From the UHGV virus genome UHGV-0038492: DNA of 64,000 nt; one strand, given 5' to 3'. Numbering within the stretch: position 1 is the first letter of the stretch; each line of letters opens with the position of its first letter. Position numbers and translations under genes: made by a program. Below the pieces are notes generated by a model that saw only the letters and a program-made list of their open reading frames with translations, was not told the origin of the DNA and did not search any database. Source of the stretch: a virus. Positions 333 through 49,717 of the stretch are shown in pieces.

Positions 333-2113
333 TTAGTGAGTGGTTTTGATGTATTCAAACGGATCGGTAACGGTTTCTCCCTGACGACGTAAGAATGCTT
401 CTAACACAACGTTCTTATCCGGCAGTAAGAAGAAGTCCGTTGCGATTTCCATTGCATTAACACGCCCTGCGGTAAGGTTAATCCCTACACGACGACGTAC
501 TTCTTCAGGAACACCATGAATACTCAGCAACTCGATTAACGTTGTTTCACGAGACTGGTTCATCATGTTCGTTGCAGAAGGATACGCCTGGGTTAAGTCC
601 GCATCTGCGGTTTGCCCACGGAAAGCAGTGTAGAAATCATCAAACTCTTTAATGATTCCTCGCAGACCGTTTTCTGCGTTCATACACGCAGTTAACGTAA
701 CAATCCAACCGTCCGTACCGATAACTTCTTCATCGAAATCATTACGCATTGCACTACCTACACAACCGATAACCAATCCTTGTTCATAAAGGTAATAGGT
801 GTAAGCAATACAAATACGTTTTGGTAACGAAGGGAAGATATCGTACATCGAATAACCTGCCAGTACGGAAATTGCCGAAGACAAGTCGTTCGTCTTTTTA
901 TCCAACAACACAATCATCAGGTTATCGAAGATGTTATAAACGCAGTATTCGAGCGGGAACTCTTTCTGTGCTTTTAAGTGCCATTCCAGTTTCTCCTCGT
1001 AAGGCAACTCTGGCAAGTCTAACTTGTTTAAGCCCAGTTCGGTTTCCAGAATAGCGTTAAGTTTGTAAGAAGGACGTTGGCCTTCGTGAACACGCAGTGA
1101 ACGAAATAGACACATTGCATCCACACAGTAGAACGATGCGGTACAATAAAGTACGTGCCACTGTTGTGAAGGTGCTTTGGTCAGTGATTTCGATTCCGTT
1201 TTCTTCGATGCTTCGTCTTTCTTGAAGTAAACACGACGGTATTGTTTCGGTACATCAGGATGGCAAAAGACGTCTTCTGGTGGAATCCCTGCGGCTTCCA
1301 GTGCTTCTAACATGCGTGAAATATCGAACTCGTGGTTCCATGCAACTAATAAGTCAGGTAGACGAGGGTGAATCTCTTCAAACATGCGTTGAATACAGCA
1401 GCCAGAGTTTAAGCATTCGTAAACGAAGATTTTATATCCGTCGATAACGTCTTTGATTTCAGTCTTAGGATTGCCTTCTTTGTCTTTGCCACGAAAAGCA
1501 ATTTTAGAAAGTAACTCCTTCGCACGTTTAATTAGTCGCGCTTCGAAGTTCTCACGGCCACAACGCGCAACGTAGTCTTTCGTTGCGAAGAAATGAATTT
1601 CGTCATCCAAAACAAAACTCATAATCCAAGGGTCTCGAGATTTGTCTTCTTCTCGAGTTTCCACGTCGTATACACAAATACGGTTAGGTGAAACGGCGTT
1701 AGGCCATTTCTTTACATACCTTTCTTTAATCCAGCTGGTGATAGGTAAGTCAGCCCAGTATACGTACGGAGAGGTACAGACTTGGCGTAATGAACGTTTT
1801 TTGTCAGGAAATCTTGCCCCTAGACCCATCTGGATAGTTTGTGACATCATCACATCCGTGGTCATGTATTCCTGACACTTACTGCGTTCTTCGTATTCTT
1901 TCTTTTCTTGATGGTTACGGTGTTGTGGTAAAGTAATGTAGATAGGCCGTTTCAGATTTTCACGCATGACGATACGCGGGATGAATCTGCCATCTTTAGT
2001 ATGGACGACCTCCTTTATGAGCACGAAGTCGTTTTCTTTCTGCTGATCGGTTGCGTACGAAACAAATTTGCACTCTTTGGCAATAACGTCTTCCGGTGCG
2101 TAATAGTTATTCA
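333..2113 (-). CDS. family-B DNA polymerase-like protein with 3'-5' exonuclease domain (possible fragment of a split polymerase)
   Basis: Translation shows ExoI-like VYDVETRE, ExoII-like AWNHEFDISRML and ExoIII-like YCVDAMCL in order; weak motif-A-like YDIFPSLP; no motif B/C seen. Start set at MNNYYAPE (ATG 2111-2113) rather than track start 2249, which would overlap the divergent gene. Confidence 0.5.
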
Positions 2114-3978: not shown

Positions 3979-5648
3979 GCATGGAAATGACAGCAAACAT
4001 TGCACAACCGCAATGGAAACTCGACGAACTTCCAACCATTATCGAACAGCGAATGGAAGAACGTATCGATTCTGTCAGCCAGCTCAACCTCTACATGCAG
4101 CGTAACGAAGCCGATTTGATTTACGGTTCACGTATTATCGCGCAGATTGAAGCGATTCTTCGTGAAGTTCGTAAAGCGGGTCTAAATCGTGACGTTGCCG
4201 TAGCGACGGAATCTTTGCGTCCAGGTACCATTCCAAAAGCAGTGCAAAGCATCCTGACGTCGAATTACAGCCGTACCCATCAGAAAGAAACCGTCATCGC
4301 GTTAGAGTCTTACGCAAACTTCGGTAAGATCAGTCTTATCGTGATGGTAATGATGGGGATTATGAAAATCCTGAACTGGATTATCAGTAACGCTGTACCG
4401 TTTGCAGGGGCTGCTGACGTGGATGGGGACGAGTATCGTGACAAGCTCTTAGAGAAGATCGATGCGGTTCCTTTCTTTGAACGTCTGAAAATTACCGCGC
4501 TGAAAGAAGCGTATATGGACGCATCGAAGGGACTGAAAGACGGCGAACTGAATAACCTGGAATTGGCTATTCTGATGGCGGATGAAGTCCTGACGAACAT
4601 GAACGCGGAAGACCTGCTGAACAAGCTCAGTGCGGCACTGGGTCGTTCTCCGTTCGTAGGGATGTTTAAAGACTACACGAAACGCCGTCAGAACGAACAG
4701 CAGGTTATCCACGATATCCTCGATACGTTGCTGCGTACCAATATCGGTTGTGCAGTATTCAGTCAGCAGGTTTGTGACGAAGTGTACAAAGGTTTACCGG
4801 CGGACGTTCGTAAAGCAGGTGTCAACATTCCTAACGAAGCGTTCTACCGCCAGATGGGAAGAAACCTGGAGAACTTCTCCGCAGGGTTAAAACGTTTAGA
4901 ACAGTCGTTAAAAGACCTCAAGACCTATTACTTCTCGGGTGACCGTAGGCTGGGTACGGATCAAGAAAACCGTATTAGCGCAACGGGCATCGTTCAAGCA
5001 CTGGCGTTGCTTAACGGTGAAATTGAAATAGGGTTAACTGATTTTGCATCGTGCCGTGGCGCACCCTTACCGACGATAATGGTGAAATCCGATCGTGACT
5101 TAATCGGCTATTCATCTCGTGAGTTCGGTAATGGTTTCATTATCGCTTCTGCGGGCGTTAACTCGTATTTCGGTTCTGCGGCTAACATGGAAATTATGCG
5201 CCAGGAGCTGAGCTTTACCAGCGGTGATTCTCGTGAACTGTTAGCGTGTCTGATTACGTTAGCTCGTAGCGGTATTACCAAAGGGCCAGCCGATACGTCT
5301 CTTGACCGTTTCAAAGTGGTAGAGAAACAGATCGAGAAAGTGGTTAGCCAGTTGAAAGACATGTCTCGCCAATCTCGCTCTGGTATGAACAGCAAAGCTT
5401 GGCAGATGATGGAACAAGCGTTCCGTGACGAAGCACAACGTTCAGAACTGTACGAATTGGACATTGGTCGTGAACTGACGACGATGACCGTGATGGACCC
5501 AGACCGAAACGTGTGGGATTCTGTTGCGTTTACAACGGAACTGATTAAGTCCTGGACAACTGCCGCCGGTGCGCTGGCGACGATTCTGAAACGGGCTAAG
5601 AACAACCCGCTGGTAAAAGGTGGGAAGTTTAATAAACTCGTCGACTAA
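3975..5648 (+). CDS. hypothetical protein (557 aa) with one internal hydrophobic segment
   Basis: Long ORF translationally coupled to upstream gene; ends at bidirectional terminator. Confidence 0.65.
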   Translation: MSMEMTANIAQPQWKLDELPTIIEQRMEERIDSVSQLNLYMQRNEADLIYGSRIIAQIEAILREVRKAGLNRDVAVATESLRPGTIPKAVQSILTSNYSRTHQKETVIALESYANFGKISLIVMVMMGIMKILNWIISNAVPFAGAADVDGDEYRDKLLEKIDAVPFFERLKITALKEAYMDASKGLKDGELNNLELAILMADEVLTNMNAEDLLNKLSAALGRSPFVGMFKDYTKRRQNEQQVIHDILDTLLRTNIGCAVFSQQVCDEVYKGLPADVRKAGVNIPNEAFYRQMGRNLENFSAGLKRLEQSLKDLKTYYFSGDRRLGTDQENRISATGIVQALALLNGEIEIGLTDFASCRGAPLPTIMVKSDRDLIGYSSREFGNGFIIASAGVNSYFGSAANMEIMRQELSFTSGDSRELLACLITLARSGITKGPADTSLDRFKVVEKQIEKVVSQLKDMSRQSRSGMNSKAWQMMEQAFRDEAQRSELYELDIGRELTTMTVMDPDRNVWDSVAFTTELIKSWTTAAGALATILKRAKNNPLVKGGKFNKLVD

Positions 5649-15366: not shown

Positions 15367-15408
15367 TCTCAGATAGATATTACCTTAGTGAGATTACGCT
15401 GTAATCTT
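15367..15408 (+). promoter_or_regulatory. conserved promoter-like element copy 1 (AT-rich box TATATTAC-like + palindrome)
   Basis: tctcAGATAGATATTACCTTAGTGAGATTACgctGTAATCt; one of five related copies, each 20-40 nt upstream of an ATG with SD. Confidence 0.5.
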
Positions 15409-22994: not shown

Positions 22995-22998
22995 AATT

Positions 22999-23040
22999 AT
23001 CCCGTTACCTTTGTGGGTAACGGGATGTCCTTTTATTTAC
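22999..23040 (+). terminator. Rho-independent terminator
   Basis: Stem tcccgttacc / ggtaacggga then tgtccttttatttac. Confidence 0.7.
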
Positions 23041-23158
23041 TCGTAAATGCGTCTTAGACGCTGTTTTACACCTTAAGACGATTAATGGTGTTTAAAAAAT
23101 AAAAGGTCGTCAGAATGCGATACAGCGCGTTTTAGAGGGTGTTTTAATTAAAATATTT

Positions 23159-23199
23159 TCAGATATATATTACTTAGGTGAGAGAATTACGTAATACTC
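23159..23199 (+). promoter_or_regulatory. conserved promoter-like element copy 2
   Basis: tttcAGATATATATTACTTAGGTGAGAGAATTACGTAATACtc with palindromic AATTACGTAATA. Confidence 0.5.
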
Positions 23200-23230
23200 A
23201 TTTATCGAATACCTAATTAGGAGCTATATC

Positions 23231-23374
23231 ATGATTTCTGTAAAACACAAAAAAGCTATCTTCGCTGTTGTTATCGCTGTTGTTCTGGGTTGCCTGTACC
23301 TGGATATCGACAAAGGCTACGACACTTGCATCGACAACGGTAATTCCGTTGCACAGTGCACTGGTCGTGGTTAA
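23231..23374 (+). CDS. small putative lipoprotein (47 aa precursor)
   Basis: RBS aggag 8 nt before ATG; hydrophobic N-terminus ending in lipobox-like VLGC; mature part has 3 Cys; highly biased codons; flanked by promoter-like element and terminator. Confidence 0.5.
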   Translation: MISVKHKKAIFAVVIAVVLGCLYLDIDKGYDTCIDNGNSVAQCTGRG

Positions 23375-23380
23375 TGTATA

Positions 23381-23410
23381 AGGCACCTTCGGGTGCCCTT
23401 AATTTTTTAT
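23381..23410 (+). terminator. Rho-independent terminator
   Basis: aggcaccttcgggtgccctt then aatttttta. Confidence 0.75.
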
Positions 23411-23428
23411 CTATTGGAGTATTTTTAA

Positions 23429-24244
23429 ATGAAAACTATCAAAGACTATTTTCCGACTGGCATCAGTAGCGACCATTTCGTACCAGCGGATTCGATGGAA
23501 ATTATCAGCAAGTCCAGTAGCGGTGAGTTTGTTATTTACCTAACTAATGTAGGAGGTAGACCGAGTTTCATTCTCCTCGAGCCTAAAGAAATAAGTGTCT
23601 GTACGGTTGCTGTAAATGTTTCTTGCGGCCTTAGCTGGTTGAAGTCCAGGCTGTTACGCTTGCTCGTGGTTAATACTGACCCAGCAGTACGCTTAGAGCG
23701 ATTAAAAGCAATGAATGAAGTTATCCTGGGTTTTCTGCTACATCCTATTTACGGTAACCCTAAAGTCGCAGAAGCAATACAAAACGTACAGTTAGTAGAG
23801 TGGAGTGATATTAACTACGAGCGTGCCTCCGAATTTGTATTACAGGCAGACGACAACACCGGTGTGTTCTCACAAACGTTGGATAACGTAACGGTAACCG
23901 CGCGTGTGTTGTTTGGTTTACAACGCGTAGAGTTTGAATTGAAACACGTCTACGTGAGCAATGAGCCAGAGATGGTGGAAACGTTGATTCGTGCGTTCGC
24001 ATATCCGTTAGACGGTGAATGGGAACAGCAGATTAACGGAGCGTTGGAAGCCATGCATTTCCTGGCTCAAACGTTAAGGAAGGATGAGAAATTGAAAGGT
24101 CGTGTTTATCCAGAACACGATTTTGTTTGTGAAGAATGTGGGGCACAGTATCAAATCCGTGTTCCTTTAACCGGCCTAACATTCCCGCAAGCCAACGTGC
24201 AATGTAAGGAATGTGGCCATGTTCAATACGTAGCGATTAAATAA
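23429..24244 (+). CDS. hypothetical protein (271 aa) with C-terminal CxxC...CxxC zinc-ribbon-like motif
   Basis: ORF with RBS ggag; C-terminus CEECGAQYQ...CKECGHVQY. Confidence 0.6.
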   Translation: MKTIKDYFPTGISSDHFVPADSMEIISKSSSGEFVIYLTNVGGRPSFILLEPKEISVCTVAVNVSCGLSWLKSRLLRLLVVNTDPAVRLERLKAMNEVILGFLLHPIYGNPKVAEAIQNVQLVEWSDINYERASEFVLQADDNTGVFSQTLDNVTVTARVLFGLQRVEFELKHVYVSNEPEMVETLIRAFAYPLDGEWEQQINGALEAMHFLAQTLRKDEKLKGRVYPEHDFVCEECGAQYQIRVPLTGLTFPQANVQCKECGHVQYVAIK

Positions 24245-24248
24245 AAGC

Positions 24249-24296
24249 AACCCCTAATCCCGAAAAGGATTAGGGGTACACTTTATTTATTTTCGC
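24249..24296 (+). terminator. Rho-independent terminator
   Basis: Stem acccctaatcc / ggattaggggt with loop cgaaaa, then T-rich tract. Confidence 0.8.
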
Positions 24297-24320
24297 AATT
24301 TCAACATAGGAGAAAAGTTC

Positions 24321-24479
24321 ATGAAACATGAACAGTTGTTTCAAAGGTTAAACGAGTTGTCCGTAAAACAGCTCGAATTTCAACGAAGGGTTAGTGAAAT
24401 AGCGCAACCAACGTTAACTCAGCCCAAAGTTGCTTATCCAAGAAACACCCAGTTGATAGTTGAAAGGAGAAGTAACTGA
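24321..24479 (+). CDS. small hypothetical protein (52 aa)
   Basis: RBS aggagaaaag before ATG; own downstream terminator hairpin. Confidence 0.35.
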   Translation: MKHEQLFQRLNELSVKQLEFQRRVSEIAQPTLTQPKVAYPRNTQLIVERRSN

Positions 24480-24485
24480 TAAAAA

Positions 24486-24516
24486 CAAGGGGGTGCTGCC
24501 ACACCCCTTTTTTACG
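24486..24516 (+). terminator. Rho-independent terminator
   Basis: aagggggtgctgccacaccccttttttac. Confidence 0.65.
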
Positions 24517-24633
24517 CTTTAACTTTTCCAAAGAGAAGTTAAAGCAGTAGGGGATGACCGACATCCCCTACTGTACGGTGCCAACGCATAAAGACGTTGG
24601 CGTTTCTTACAACGTTACTAAAGGTAATGAAAA

Positions 24634-24804
24634 ATGAACGATTATCAATTACAGATGTTTAATGCGGCGATGCGTAACCGTGAAAAACAAATTCAGTTCA
24701 ACCAACGCATGGATGAATATGTTCGCCTCGGTCTTGTTGCGGCACCTAAAACATCTAATAACCAGAATATACAGCAACCCTATGTAAGGAGAACTGGCTA
24801 CTAA
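24634..24804 (+). CDS. small hypothetical protein (56 aa)
   Basis: RBS aaaggtaatg before ATG 24634; followed by GC hairpin 24816-24837. Confidence 0.35.
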   Translation: MNDYQLQMFNAAMRNREKQIQFNQRMDEYVRLGLVAAPKTSNNQNIQQPYVRRTGY

Positions 24805-24941
24805 TTAACTAATACAGGGGGTGCACTACCACCCCCTACTTGGTTCAGTAGTTGACTTTCGTTCATAATTATTAGATGTCTTGTTTTTTTTGCTTTTCAG
24901 GACGCATAAGGGGTCGTAGGGGGAGCCGAAGCTCCCCAGAC

Positions 24942-26504
24942 TCAAAAGAGTTCGTCACCCATACCGCCTGTAAAGACGTTAATCGACGATGCAGTCACTG
25001 TTTCTTCTTTATCGCAATCCCAAGGCAGAATGCCAACTTCACGGAAAGGTATTACTGTATAATGGTAAGCTTCTTTAGTATCGATAATTGTACGGTGTTT
25101 ACCACGTTGTACTTCTAAGTAACTATGTCCATTGACAACACGTTTGTTAAAATACATCTCACCGTCAGCTTCGTTATCCAAGCTGGAGCAGTTATCGTAA
25201 AGACCGCGACCTGGTAAGTTCTTACAGAAACTTGCTGGGTCTAACGCTTTTAATTTTTTGCCTTCTGGTGAGATTTGGTGTGGTGCTAACAAGAAACCAC
25301 GGTTACGTACTACCTGGATGTTTCGAGCGATACGATAAATTTCTTTAATGTCGCTACCGGCAATCCCGTTACCGTGACCTGCTTTACTGATAGTCCCGAA
25401 ATAGTCTCCGCGAATCCCAGCTACATGATAACCTCGACGCTTTAAGTCCAGTATTAAGTCGTTTAAGTAGTGTATTTTAAAATCTGAGTTTGTGTGTTTC
25501 TGAAAGATGTATTCCCAACCGTTAGCCCGCATTTTACTACAGAGGTAGTCCGACATTTTTGTGTTGTGTAAAGCTTTCTCTTCGTCGGTAGCGTTTTCAG
25601 AAGCAACCATAACCGGTGCTTCACCTTCAAAATGACCGTAGAGCGCTTGGTACGCATACGCCAAGTTAACGTCCAGTTCGTTCTCTAAACTTAAATCGAG
25701 AATAACCGGCTGCAAATCCCCTTTAACATTTTCCATTACTTTTTCGGGTGTATTGAATACCGGAATACTGATAGACAACAACAGACTAAAAAGTGATTTA
25801 CAGTTAAAAGGCAGTGCAGGCATTAACCAAAGCTCTTCGGTAATCCCTTTGTTACAACCCAGCATCTGGTTAATGGCTTTCCATCCGGTACGTAAACCGT
25901 TACCCGCTGCTTTCTTACTGATGGAGTCGAACACATGCACGAACGGTGCACGGTTATCCGTAATAAGCTCGCCTACGAGTGAGGGAATCTTATTATGAGA
26001 GCGTTCACTGAACGTAGAGAGACTATCTCTGAGGTCGTTGAGCGCCGTTTGTAAATCAACGCGCGTTTCGGTTCCGTTCAGTGCGCCTAACGTACGACCT
26101 AATTTTTGTTTCAGTTGTACGCCTTGAATAGCTTGACGTAATTGGAAGTAGTATTGTGCTACTTGACGGTTAAGATGCTCGATGCGTGCTTCTGGTTCTT
26201 CTGGAATATCATCTTCCAGGAATTTGGTAATCGTATCGTATAGAGGACGTATTTGCGTAGTGGCCAACTTCAAACGTTTCATGACGTTTGTGTGGTCGTA
26301 AGGCATACCGCCGTCTATGATGGATGTGATGATATCCTTGATTTCGACGAGGGCGGCACGTTCGTCACCTTCCTCTACGTAATCAGGAAGCTTAGCCTCT
26401 AACAGCACTTTTCTTATGACCTCATGATCCTTCTCAGGGTCGGTCAACAGACTTTCAGTGTATAGTGTGGCTAATGCGGTTATCAACATCATTTTGTTAT
26501 TCAT
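24942..26504 (-). CDS. hypothetical protein (520 aa)
   Basis: Long minus-strand ORF; hairpin ggggagc/gctcccc just downstream of its stop; hydrophobic N-terminus. Confidence 0.6.
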   Translation of the reverse strand: MNNKMMLITALATLYTESLLTDPEKDHEVIRKVLLEAKLPDYVEEGDERAALVEIKDIITSIIDGGMPYDHTNVMKRLKLATTQIRPLYDTITKFLEDDIPEEPEARIEHLNRQVAQYYFQLRQAIQGVQLKQKLGRTLGALNGTETRVDLQTALNDLRDSLSTFSERSHNKIPSLVGELITDNRAPFVHVFDSISKKAAGNGLRTGWKAINQMLGCNKGITEELWLMPALPFNCKSLFSLLLSISIPVFNTPEKVMENVKGDLQPVILDLSLENELDVNLAYAYQALYGHFEGEAPVMVASENATDEEKALHNTKMSDYLCSKMRANGWEYIFQKHTNSDFKIHYLNDLILDLKRRGYHVAGIRGDYFGTISKAGHGNGIAGSDIKEIYRIARNIQVVRNRGFLLAPHQISPEGKKLKALDPASFCKNLPGRGLYDNCSSLDNEADGEMYFNKRVVNGHSYLEVQRGKHRTIIDTKEAYHYTVIPFREVGILPWDCDKEETVTASSINVFTGGMGDELF

Positions 26505-26517
26505 GGAGCATCCTTAA

Positions 26518-27042
26518 ATGCAAATTCGTTTTAGTCCACCGTGGGAAGTTCAGCCTAACATAGATAAAGGCGCTGCCGTTAAAAGTGTAGAATTGCTCCA
26601 GGCAGGGTTCTTTAACTGGTTATATGACTGTCCGAATGGTTTCAGTTCTATCATTATACCTGAAGTAAGTCGTTCTGCTATTTATAAAGCGTTAATGGCT
26701 CCGCCTGTACTTCCAGGTAAATATTATGATCAGGTGTTACGTCTGGTCGAATCAGGCGAAAAGGTTTCCCTTGACGATTTATATGGGGAAACAATTCCTT
26801 GTCGCTTACGCTGGGTCTTTACCCAACGTGGTGATACGATTGTGGCGTCATTTGCAGAAGCGAAGTCCGGTTCGGGTTTTTCTTCGGGTGAAGACCACGC
26901 TGCGAAAAAGATGTTCTGCGCAGAACTTTTTAAATATATGCGTACCAAGACTCGCGTCGTGGATGACTGCTTCAGTACCTCAACGCAGTTTGCCGCTAAC
27001 GAAGTGCTGACGCAATTATACGCATGTCATTTATCTCATTAA
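26518..27042 (+). CDS. hypothetical protein (174 aa), immediately upstream of capsid gene
   Basis: ORF starting 14 nt from the divergent minus-strand gene; ends 12 nt before capsid gene start. Confidence 0.6.
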   Translation: MQIRFSPPWEVQPNIDKGAAVKSVELLQAGFFNWLYDCPNGFSSIIIPEVSRSAIYKALMAPPVLPGKYYDQVLRLVESGEKVSLDDLYGETIPCRLRWVFTQRGDTIVASFAEAKSGSGFSSGEDHAAKKMFCAELFKYMRTKTRVVDDCFSTSTQFAANEVLTQLYACHLSH

Positions 27043-29406: not shown

Positions 29407-29438
29407 TTGGATAGATATTATCAAAGGGAGACTGTCAG
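29407..29438 (+). promoter_or_regulatory. conserved promoter-like element copy 3 (divergent variant)
   Basis: ttggATAGATATTATCAAAGGGAGActgtcag; shares the AT-rich box and GAGA half-site but the palindrome is degenerate. Confidence 0.35.
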
Positions 29439-42956: not shown

Positions 42957-43432
42957 TGCAGCAATTAGATATTACCGAAGACAAAATCTCCGCTAAATTT
43001 CCACAATTACGTGAATACATCAAAGACTTAAATTCGATACGCGAAACACCGGTCCGCATTACCTTAGCGGTAGAAGATGACATTACACACGGTATTGCGA
43101 TTTGGGAACCGGGCAATCTTATCTATTTGGTGGTGGCGGAAGGTTCTCGACGTTTCGGTGTGGGTTCGTTCTTATTGCAGTACGTTCAGTTGAATTCCGA
43201 TCGTCAAATGGTGACGTGTCGTGTCCACCCTTCGAACATTGACGGCCTGTGTTTCTTTTCGAAAAAAGGCTACCAGATTGACCGTTGGTATATCGCCAGC
43301 GACTCTCGTCGGTATTTTCGTATGACGAACGGTAACGTTGTTTCGTCATACGCCCCGCCGGAAGAAGGATATTTGGTGGATTTTATCGAAAACACGCCCA
43401 TCTTTCTCTCTGTTGCGGATAAAATTTATTAA
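42956..43432 (+). CDS. GNAT-family N-acetyltransferase (158 aa)
   Basis: Acetyl-CoA-binding-like motif VVAEGSRRFGVGSFLLQYV, then a GNAT-like C-terminal region; coupled start (TAATG). Confidence 0.6.
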   Translation: MQQLDITEDKISAKFPQLREYIKDLNSIRETPVRITLAVEDDITHGIAIWEPGNLIYLVVAEGSRRFGVGSFLLQYVQLNSDRQMVTCRVHPSNIDGLCFFSKKGYQIDRWYIASDSRRYFRMTNGNVVSSYAPPEEGYLVDFIENTPIFLSVADKIY

Positions 43433-49676: not shown

Positions 49677-49717
49677 CAGATATATATTACCTTAGTGAGA
49701 TTACACAGTAATCTCTT
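49677..49717 (+). promoter_or_regulatory. conserved promoter-like element copy 4
   Basis: tcAGATATATATTACCTTAGTGAGATTACacaGTAATCTC with perfect 8 bp inverted repeat GAGATTAC/GTAATCTC. Confidence 0.5.

Follow-up and report, generated by a model that had tools for sequence, protein, structure and literature searches.

A hyperplastic slot with a tandem array of small paralogous genes and conserved hairpin junctions in an SPN3US-like jumbo phage

We describe here the stretch between positions 24245 and 24941 (~700 nucleotides [nt]) of a 64-kb piece of the virus genome UHGV-0038492; this piece is called the window throughout, and positions are counted from its first letter. The window belongs to an SPN3US-like jumbo phage (Chimalliviridae), and the stretch separates a gene for a protein of 271 amino acids (aa) from the convergent gene for a DnaB-like replicative helicase. 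We posit that the stretch is a fast-changing, hyperplastic slot, in which a tandem array of paralogous genes for proteins of ~50 aa sits between two convergent core genes and is punctuated at the RNA level by hairpins. Taken as a whole, we judge this reading moderately probable; our confidence is high for the description of the array and its junctions and about evenly balanced for RNA punctuation as the mechanism. The small genes are real, the structures between them are conserved, the palindrome at the junctions is specific to the array, the two halves of the junction module assort with the genes beside them, gene number and order vary, and hairpin loops flip between close relatives.

In the model that we propose, a cassette would consist of a 5' GC hairpin (hp3), a leader hairpin, a Shine-Dalgarno (SD) sequence with its open reading frame (ORF), and a 3' GC hairpin (hp1, or hp6 for the last gene), and successive cassettes would be joined by an invariant 30-nt AT-rich palindrome. 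In plus-strand RNA, hp1 and hp6 would form or protect the 3' end of each small mRNA; the AU-rich hairpin would separate one unit from the next, being either the point at which a read-through transcript that starts at 23160 is cleaved or a phage promoter outside the sigma-70 class; and hp3 would be the protective 5' stem-loop of the next mRNA. At the DNA level, the repeated modules and similar gene ends would allow unequal recombination and microhomology deletion, and hence the gain and loss of cassettes, while the palindromes would undergo arm-mediated inversion of their loops.

Junction module, hairpins and small genes

Twenty copies of the junction module were aligned and scored against a three-helix structure. 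Across these copies, 98.9% of the cells are paired, compared with 42 to 59% when the partners are slid by one to three columns. In hp3, 8 of the 11 pairs are compensatory (changed on both sides) and 100% of the cells are paired; in hp1, 3 of 8 pairs are compensatory. The AT stem is kept in sequence: 12 of its 13 pairs are invariant, its U.G pair occurs in every copy, and its one variable pair goes from A-U to U-A, symmetrically in both arms, in 5 of the 20. Moreover, hp1 and its tail track the type of the upstream gene and the hp3 stem tracks the type of the downstream gene, with the palindrome unchanged between them, in 11 distinct upstream-to-downstream combinations. The original prediction saw in these hairpins something other than simple terminators and turned on their conservation in related genomes; they are conserved there, and stems kept through many compensatory changes in relatives are not chance terminators.

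The palindrome belongs to this locus alone. A pattern search with 3 mismatches allowed and a covariance model (R1) find one copy in the window, and scans of the whole viral and metagenome collections find it, in each contig (~220 kb), at this locus only. Its restriction to one site rules it out as a promoter or terminator signal that the phage uses generally. In Seoulvirus, Machinavirus and the divergent contig L025, the site before the first small gene holds a GC hairpin, TTTATTTTC-loop-GAAAATAAA and a second GC hairpin; the covariance model of the module finds weak matches at these sites and nowhere else.

Could the palindrome instead be an array-specific operator, or an RNA hairpin site, bound for example by the small basic helical proteins of the array, which would then regulate their own cassettes? 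Its two 9-bp half-sites lie about two helical turns apart, its sequence is conserved while its neighbors vary, and its single variable position changes in both arms alike. It is found only inside the array, whose only specific products are the small proteins, and these are predicted to have a long helix and a basic tail. Nevertheless, the proteins have no recognizable nucleic-acid-binding fold or family, Seoulvirus arrays have the proteins and lack this palindrome sequence, and RNA pairing or DNA arm conversion would produce symmetric changes just as readily. We find an operator of this kind very doubtful.

The stretch contains nine hairpins (Table 1), five of which (hp0, the start-codon hairpin, hp4, hp5 and the helicase hairpin) add to those originally predicted. 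If a strong perfect-stem hairpin is defined by a stem of at least 7 and a free energy (dG) of at most -9, then 5 of the 27 in the window fall in the stretch, which makes up 1.1% of the window length. The 164-nt spacer between ORFs A and B folds into five consecutive hairpins at -65.7 kcal/mol, compared with -34.4 +/- 3.6 for shuffled sequences (z score -8.66, 0 of 200), and the hairpin density remarked on earlier is indeed unusual. The predicted terminator corresponds to hp1 with the T6 that follows it, and the predicted GC hairpin (24545-24572) and the hairpin at 24816-24837 are both present. A 9-bp perfect inverted repeat had been placed at 24518-24548; the repeat exists, but its arms lie at 24517-24525 and 24536-24544. 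As RNA, the palindrome that contains these perfect 9-nt arms folds into a 13-bp stem with one U.G pair.

The observation that some of the hairpins have no T-run also holds: at most 5 T occur in the next 10 nt, on either strand, at 24545-24573 (hp3), hp6 and the helicase hairpin. Elsewhere in the window, 15 of 22 strong hairpins are followed on one strand, by our count, by 6 or more T within 10 nt of the stem; canonical terminators there are a hairpin followed by a tail such as TTTTATTTTTTT, hairpins at gene ends are the norm in this genome, and UUCG tetraloops are common. By its sequence, hp0 is a bidirectional terminator. The tails of hp1 are T6 on the plus strand, a run that most relatives lose, and CTTGTTTTTA on the minus strand, and a terminator scan calls hp3 terminator-like on the minus strand. 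No spacer separates the AT hairpin from hp3, and the two could stack coaxially. In hp4, the B1 and B2 alleles have changes in both partners of two pairs, with the loop conserved and never inverted; hp5 is more stable on the plus strand in 3 of 3 variants. The loop of hp6 is variable and inverted between relatives. The stem of the helicase hairpin covaries across genera (4 of 8 pairs compensatory), and its loop is kept, never inverted, in all 10 contigs of the clade in which the hairpin was found. A motif common to hp4 and the helicase 3' untranslated region (UTR), ACGCATAA, is not enriched (3 matches versus 2.5 expected).

Table 1. Features of the studied stretch, its flanks and the candidate early motif
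Feature	Position	Strand	Description
CAGATAKATATTAC copies	15370-15384, 23160-23174, 29408-29422, 42962-42976, 49677-49691; in SPN3US (L001), 1564-1577	+	candidate early motif
271-aa gene	23429-24244	+	upstream flank; SPN3US_0070 homologue; C-terminal CxxC...CxxC zinc ribbon; synteny with SPN3US, SPLA1a and phiEaH2
hp0	24250-24277	both	predicted terminator of the 271-aa gene, 11 bp; T-rich tail 24278-24296, A-rich 5' side; z -5.96
SD of ORF A	24308-24312	+	AGGAG, 8 nt 5' of the ATG
Start-codon hairpin	24317-24333	+	GTTCATG-AAA-CATGAAC, 7 bp; encloses the ORF A ATG
ORF A	24321-24479	+	52 aa; type A cassette; paralogue of ORF B, and of gp71/gp72 of SPN3US
hp1	24487-24510		3' hairpin of cassette A; GGGGTG-N6-CACCCC, 9 bp; -13.6 kcal/mol, z -2.9
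AT-rich palindrome	24516-24545	+	junction element; GCTTTAACTTTTC-CAAA-GAGAAGTTAAAGC; -15.9 kcal/mol, z -5.85, 0/200 shuffles
hp3	24546-24572 (perfect palindrome 24545-24573)		GC hairpin; -23.7 kcal/mol, z -7.6; no + strand T-run
hp4	24579-24602	+	leader hairpin of the B cassette; GCCAACG-CATAAAGA-CGTTGGC, then TTTCTT
hp5	24613-24629	+	weak hairpin; ORF B SD (AAAGG) in or beside the loop
ORF B	24634-24804	+	56 aa; type B cassette, allele B1; AAAGG ~10 nt 5' of the ATG
hp6	24816-24837		terminal hairpin of the array; AGGGGGTG-N6-CACCCCCT; -16.7 kcal/mol, z -2.8; no + strand T-run
T8 run	24884-24891		A8 on the helicase strand; conserved in five genera
TTATGCGTCCT motif	24899-24909	-	helicase 3' UTR, ~9 nt downstream of the helicase 3' hairpin; contains TATG
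Helicase mRNA 3' hairpin	24920-24937	-	GGGGAGC-UUCG-GCUCCCC; no U-tract
Helicase gene	24942-26504	-	convergent downstream flank; DnaB-like replicative helicase, PF20307 divDNAB

ORFs A and B are the two ORFs of ~55 aa with SD sequences that had been predicted. Among orthologous pairs chosen for their divergence at synonymous sites (synonymous rate [dS], 0.35 to 0.79), the ratio of nonsynonymous to synonymous rates (dN/dS) is 0.12 to 0.16 for ORF A (versus L017), 0.10 to 0.11 for ORF B (versus L005, L006 and L007), and 0.10 to 0.17 for three further gene types (C, D and E). Judged by these ratios, A and B are real genes under purifying selection. The original description of the stretch as holding little coding sequence does not stand, given such ratios and a protein family that is conserved across several genera.

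This family is an orphan. A profile search with all types collects 65 protein clusters, every one of them in phage contigs of ~220 to 248 kb or in short fragments; all are annotated as hypothetical and lack Pfam domains. When 1.8 billion representatives were searched exhaustively with HMMER, every relative belonged to this phage group. In the PHROG collection, the family is represented by PHROG 18219, which is defined by gp71 and gp72 of SPN3US; hmmscan against it gives a marginal match for ORF A (E 0.11) and no match for ORF B. Profile-to-profile comparison (hhalign) with the Seoulvirus/Machinavirus, or SPN3US-type, family is more telling: over the N-terminal helix, A matches with an E value of 2e-5 (probability 77%) and B with one of 7.5e-6 (probability 84%). 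The SPN3US proteins share with A and B their length class, the helix motif K-Q-x-x-F-x-Q-R-V/L-x-E and a C terminus that is hydrophobic and then basic, and their genes occupy the same position, between the gp70 homologue and the convergent helicase; they differ in that identity is only 19 to 29% and the Seoulvirus KGLGG motif is absent from A and B. Because tblastn with single small proteins gave only chance-level matches, it is the profiles together with synteny that show homology. The small proteins have no match in Pfam and no related solved structure among PDB sequences. For ORF B, AlphaFold2 predicts a helix over residues 3 to 31 (confidence score pLDDT, 82 to 88), followed by a disordered basic tail with the conserved hydrophobic-then-basic end. 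We infer that the small proteins are products of accessory, possibly early, genes.

Two other frames were rejected as genes. A 57-aa minus-strand ORF (24391-24564) crosses hairpins that vary in sequence and length, as does a 27-aa ORF (24554-24637), whose upstream frame is not conserved and which is probably spurious. The 27-aa frame begins within hp3 and ends in an ATGA overlap with the start of ORF B; in P0002, P0010 and P0013, a one-base difference in an A-run fuses it to ORF B, and gene callers report products of 79 to 83 aa. At the other small gene, the start codon of ORF A lies in the left arm of the hairpin at 24317-24333, the pairing of which is partly forced by the coding sequence MKHE; this hairpin may limit translation initiation of ORF A.

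The relatives against which the slot is compared were identified by its flanks. With megablast, none of 50,697 phage records matched the region; at blastn sensitivity, the flanks alone give matches, not the stretch between them. The flanks are 72 to 80% identical in nucleotide sequence to those of Seoulvirus, Erskinevirus and Machinavirus phages, with identical gene order in all; the SPN3US-like relatives recognized in this way are Seoulvirus, Erskinevirus, Machinavirus and Derbicusvirus phages, with hosts in Salmonella, Escherichia, Erwinia, Cronobacter and Proteus. Searches with the 271-aa protein (IMG/VR) and with the palindrome pattern added 11 further contigs, mostly of 200 to 228 kb, and a scan of genome contigs with the 271-aa protein gave no matches. 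In Pfam, this protein has weak zinc-ribbon matches. On the other side of the slot, the helicase gene is followed by a gene for a 174-aa protein and then by the major head protein gene. The starts of the helicase gene (minus strand) and the 174-aa gene (plus strand) are 13 nt apart (26504-26518), and the promoters of both must therefore sit inside neighboring coding sequences.

Within these conserved flanks, the number of small genes ranges from zero (phiEaH2, Asesino, CR5) to one (pEa_SNUABM_29, Huxley, L028-L030), two (SPN3US, SPLA1a, the window, L006) and three to four (L004, L012, L013, L014/15-L019). The clade of the window has at least seven gene types (A, B, C, C', D, E and F), seen in the arrays A-B, A-C-B, A-E-D, A-E-C-D, F-C-D, A-C'-D and A-C'-B. 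Remnants mark some of the events: L005 has an A leader fused to a C' 3' end at a TTCAACAA microhomology, together with an E 3' remnant after D; L007 has an A leader fused to a D 3' end; and L004 has a D leader fused to a B leader. Some deletions use microhomologies inside genes rather than the module, and chimeric proteins occur, namely, A with the C terminus of E (P0014) and gp71/gp72 hybrids (P0019, P0027). Recombination within the array is frequent, whether or not its ancestry is one of deletion only. One contig, L017 (CYGL01000001.1, 1-4852), shows single-base homopolymer indels relative to its relatives (e.g., GCTTTTAAC, AAAAAGGCTT) that truncate C' and B; these are probably sequencing errors rather than biology.

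Loop inversion and the level at which the hairpins act

Between near-identical genomes, hairpin loops are exactly reverse-complemented and the stems are unchanged, with 8 such pairs in this clade. The inverting loops, each of 6 nt, are those of hp0, hp1/hp6, hp3 and the D-leader hairpin (e.g., CGAAAA/TTTTCG, CTGTCA/TGACAG, TATAGG/CCTATA and TTACCG/CGGTAA among the window and L004-L019); the loop of hp0, for instance, reads CGAAAA in the window and TTTTCG in 4 related contigs. The loops of the helicase UUCG hairpin and of the ORF B leader never flip. Assembly artefacts are an unlikely source of the inversions, because the arms (7 to 12 bp) are shorter than assembly k-mers and because the isolate genomes SPN3US and SPLA1a differ in the same manner, with CTGGAA in one and TTCCAG in the other (L001 ~4018-4045 versus L002 ~4016-4043). 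The inverting loops are thus without sequence constraint, and the arms of the palindromes recombine at the DNA level. Since the arms recombine as DNA, compensatory changes in the GC stems prove that the palindromes are conserved and do not by themselves prove an RNA function.

Events of this type are known elsewhere. Kelchner and Wendel (1996) reportedly described hairpin-associated minute inversions in chloroplast noncoding DNA, and Ripley (1982) is said to have described template switching at quasi-palindromes. As in chloroplasts, the loops here are exactly reverse-complemented between unchanged arms, recurrently and among very close relatives; unlike in chloroplasts, the hairpins are of the terminator type and belong to a lytic jumbo phage. 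A literature search gave no description of loop inversions in phage genomes, which is not proof of their absence.

Do the hairpins then need any RNA function at all? They might be self-perpetuating DNA palindromes, spread by cassette duplication and kept perfect by template switching between their arms. The frequency of exact loop inversions shows that such arm recombination takes place, the GC hairpins have no strand preference, and quasi-palindrome correction is an established mutational mechanism that can yield compensatory changes in one step. Four observations argue the other way: from genus to genus, the hairpins keep their places and their order with respect to stop codons and SD sequences even where their own sequences are unrelated; the helicase hairpin keeps a strand-specific UUCG loop that is never inverted; the nonpalindromic U.G pair is kept in 20 of 20 copies, although arm correction would erase it; and hairpins at gene ends are the norm in this genome. 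A purely DNA-based origin of this kind has, in our estimation, only a very slight chance of being correct.

The same U.G pair bears on strand. The AT hairpin has a free energy of -14.4 kcal/mol on the plus strand versus -9.65 kcal/mol on the minus strand, and the plus strand is the more stable one in 8 of 8 distinct variants. For the helicase hairpin, the minus strand, with the sequence C(UUCG)G, gives the more stable form. For the GC hairpins, an assignment of strand by G.U bias was tried and ruled out, since both strands are equally stable.

Transcription signals and competing readings

In this phage family, AT-rich early promoters are recognized by virion RNA polymerases (PMC7598289), and the motif CAGATAKATATTAC resembles them. 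It has 6 matches versus 1 expected; the five window copies in Table 1 are intergenic, after terminators and upstream of genes; the copies at 15370 and 49677 are followed by a conserved TTAGTG and a stem-loop, AGATTAC-N3-GTAATCT. From these sequence features, the copies are likely to be early (virion RNA polymerase) promoters with a 5' stem-loop, a promoter-plus-stem-loop unit reminiscent of the PeSL elements discussed below. One candidate, CAGATATATATTACT at 23160, lies upstream of a gene string made up of a 47-aa ORF, the 271-aa gene, A and B, and the 14-nt query CAGATATATATTAC is matched exactly at the corresponding position in SPN3US. Since the module lacks the early motif, transcripts that start at 23160 may read through hp0 and hp1 to reach A and B, or else a promoter of an undefined (middle or late) class may lie in the palindrome region. 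In the spacer between gp71 and gp72 of SPN3US (L001 3826-3839), a copy of the early motif with 3 mismatches, CAGCGATATATTAA, forms the right arm of an AT-rich stem 23 nt before gp72, which suggests that the Seoulvirus spacer may carry a promoter of its own.

A second variable slot lies at 22995-23428. In SPN3US, four small genes (144 to 417 nt) are found there; the window has just one ORF, of 47 aa and with a hydrophobic segment (23231-23374), flanked by three terminator-like hairpins (23000-23025, 23049-23061 and 23382-23397).

Where would transcripts end? Of the 132 transcript 3' ends mapped in the chimallivirus 201phi2-1, only 52 fit the intrinsic-terminator model (PMC11512511), which makes it plausible that hairpins lacking a U-tract act at 3' ends in this family. 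The GC hairpins could, however, serve the opposite strand, as an insulator of convergent transcription: they would terminate minus-strand read-through from the helicase side or late antisense transcripts, and the palindrome would be no more than the overlapping, opposed tails of hp1 (plus strand) and hp3 (minus strand). Much fits this proposal. Both hp3 and hp1 are classed by the scan as terminator-like on the minus strand, a minus-strand tail of the T-rich TTTATTAGTT type follows hp6 in 7 of 10 relatives (none has one on the plus strand), most of the 20 copies (17 by our count) have an A-rich tract ahead of hp1, with the plus-strand T-run often broken, and the GC hairpins are symmetric between strands. 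In addition, the Seoulvirus/Machinavirus leader consists of a hairpin, TTTATTTTC-GCAAA-GAAAATAAA, and a hairpin with a UUCG loop and a canonical minus-strand tail, and the helicase hairpin itself has no U-tract. What such an insulator does not explain is a palindrome conserved base for base in 20 copies, when ordinary terminator tails of the genome vary, or an invariant U.G pair that favors plus-strand RNA by ~5 kcal/mol; the minus-strand tail of hp3 (CTTTAACTTC) is moreover a poor U-tract, and the hp3 type tracks the downstream plus-strand gene, as a 5' UTR element would. We regard the insulator as unlikely, though it deserves appreciable weight, and it is compatible with the array and punctuation model rather than exclusive of it.

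The helicase 3' UTR raises a further question. The motif TTATGCGTCCT and its A-run are conserved in the clade of the window, Seoulvirus, Erskinevirus and Machinavirus, absent in CR5, and unique in the window; the motif contains TATG, the core of phiKZ late promoters (PMC7598289). The pair could be the promoter of an antisense transcript or part of a 3'-end signal. The original prediction had offered a small RNA as one possible meaning of the structured region, and two forms can be imagined: a 5'-UTR-derived RNA made by premature termination in the A-B spacer, or a minus-strand RNA of ~95 nt running from the TATG at 24906 to hp6 at 24816. Conservation of the motif and A-run downstream of the helicase hairpin in four genera speaks for the second form, as does a minus-strand hairpin ~75 to 95 nt past TTATGCGTCCT in every small-gene genome examined (Seoulvirus, Machinavirus and this clade, by our count); short 5'-UTR-derived and intergenic small RNAs have been mapped in the related giant phage 201phi2-1 (PMC11512511). 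A search of Rfam 15 (E <= 10) returned as its best match BTnc231 at 27.7 bits, below the gathering score of 80.4 (E 0.0048), with all others weaker, and no family reached its gathering score. RNAalifold finds no structure or covariation in the putative minus-strand RNA outside its terminal hairpin, hp6; the sequence from TTATGCGTCCT to hp6 shows no conservation between genera; a promoter cannot be defined by so short a sequence as TATG; and the cassette architecture accounts for the hairpins without any small RNA. We found no evidence of a new RNA gene, and a discrete small RNA strikes us as improbable. The companion suggestions fared better, in that the hairpins lie exactly where a leader, a processing site or a unit boundary would be expected.

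Several points weigh against the model of punctuated cassettes. The C-to-D junction in L004, L012 and L015 has neither hp1 nor the palindrome, so the full module is usual, not obligatory. A consensus scan of 23000-26800 gives 3 sigma-70-like sites, all on the minus strand and none in 24245-24941; with none on the plus strand, a sigma-70 promoter in the module is ruled out. The early-type motif is likewise absent from 24245-24941, and no TATG occurs on the plus strand of the module. The 5' and 3' ends proposed here are predictions, compatible with either a promoter or a processing site. The GC hairpins hp0, hp1, hp3 and hp6 are equally stable on both strands, the T-rich minus-strand tails of hp1, hp3 and hp6 fit the termination of antisense transcripts, and the compensatory changes in the GC hairpins could come from DNA template switching between arms rather than from selection on RNA. 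Finally, all arrays could be derived from one longer ancestor by deletions alone, and the word "shuffling" may thus overstate what has happened.

Relation to known systems and significance

The closest described system is the promoter-early stem-loop (PeSL; Arbiol et al. 2010, Comeau et al. 2014). PeSLs are repeated promoter-plus-stem-loop modules that flank ORFans in the hyperplastic regions of T4-type phages and mediate modular shuffling (PMC2839356; PMC4122927). Like a PeSL, the module here is a short repeated intergenic unit with a stable GC stem-loop and an adjoining AT-rich segment; it lies between the stop codon of a small ORFan and the next SD and start, in a variable region between conserved core genes, and gene gain, loss and replacement between close relatives map to it. 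It stands upstream of small genes in a hyperplastic slot (0 to 4 genes, flanks conserved), as PeSLs do, and the breakpoints fall at the repeats, with module halves following the types of the neighboring genes in the 11 combinations. The stem-loop of a PeSL can terminate or attenuate transcription; its counterparts here are stable, conserved stems that may do the same. The differences are equally clear. A PeSL has -35 and -10 elements of the sigma-70 type, which the module lacks, in a phage family that transcribes with its own multisubunit RNA polymerases; it is one stem-loop rather than a chain of three to five hairpins; it occurs in ~50 copies across the genome, whereas the palindrome is confined to one array; and its cassettes hold unrelated ORFans, whereas those described here hold paralogues of one family. 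Given the lack of a sigma-70 promoter and of genome-wide dispersal, we place the module outside the PeSL class, as a variant that belongs to another phage lineage with another transcription system.

Terminators and processing sites offer partial parallels. Among intrinsic-type terminators, the comparison is with "cluster hairpin" terminators (Gupta and Pal 2021, PMC8355165). Here, too, GC-rich hairpins follow stop codons, several of them adjacent, and hp0 and hp1 have T-rich tails; hp3, hp6 and the helicase hairpin differ in having no U-tract on the strand of the gene that they follow. Phage mRNAs also contain intercistronic processing or stabilizer hairpins, such as the RNase III sites of T7, and Tuerk et al. 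(1988) reportedly described C(UUCG)G hairpins in intercistronic regions of T4. These share with the module stable stem-loops between cistrons, and processing there would leave a 3' hairpin on the upstream mRNA and a 5' hairpin on the downstream one; classical RNase III substrates, however, are ~20 bp long and usually have an internal loop, and the stems here are 9 to 13 bp.

Integron cassettes resemble the array in another way, as small ORFs each followed by an imperfect palindrome and variable in number and order. The arms CTTTAAC...GTTAAAG also resemble the attC core sites, RYYYAAC...GTTRRRY. An attC site is far longer than the 30-nt palindrome, and its essential AAC...GTT triplet is broken here: 5 of 20 copies have ATC...GAT on both arms and 2 have a mixed AAC...GAT, which makes seven with GAT in the right arm, and 2 have AGC...GTT. 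The cassettes, furthermore, are paralogous, and tandem duplication and deletion explain them best. The regions fetched from SPN3US, phiEaH2, Asesino, Huxley and CR5 have no annotated integrase; the window proteins were not scanned for tyrosine recombinases. The nonconserved AAC/GTT triplets and the short palindrome rule out membership in the attC/integron class. We conclude that the hyperplastic array is a well-documented instance of a form of genome plasticity already known in phages rather than an element of a new kind.

A more specific idea is that the AU-rich hairpin is a dedicated recognition element, for an endoribonuclease of phage or host, for a nonvirion RNA polymerase or for the proteins of the array itself, and that it defines exchangeable cassettes. 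We give this an outside chance. If it is true, the hairpin would be a chimallivirus-specific counterpart of the PeSL or attC in a system that does not use sigma-70, and it could be coupled to a conserved antisense small RNA from the TATG.

What does the locus mean for the biology of these phages? Terminator-type hairpins flip their loops on very short evolutionary timescales, and perfect palindromes can "covary" by DNA mechanisms, which calls for caution wherever RNA structure is inferred from covariation. The small protein family, lineage restricted and rapidly reshuffled, has the profile expected of host-interaction or anti-defense accessory genes, though this is inferential only. Module-mediated gene turnover, described for T4-type phages, would also occur in an unrelated lineage of giant phages. 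Nucleus-forming jumbo phages use their own RNA polymerases, and their middle and late promoters, terminators and processing signals are poorly defined; here, an invariant AU-rich hairpin amid GC hairpins kept only in structure would mark the boundaries of transcription units. With more than 12 genomes, 20 module copies and 11 junction types, the locus is a natural series that may serve as a test bed for how mRNAs start and end in this family.

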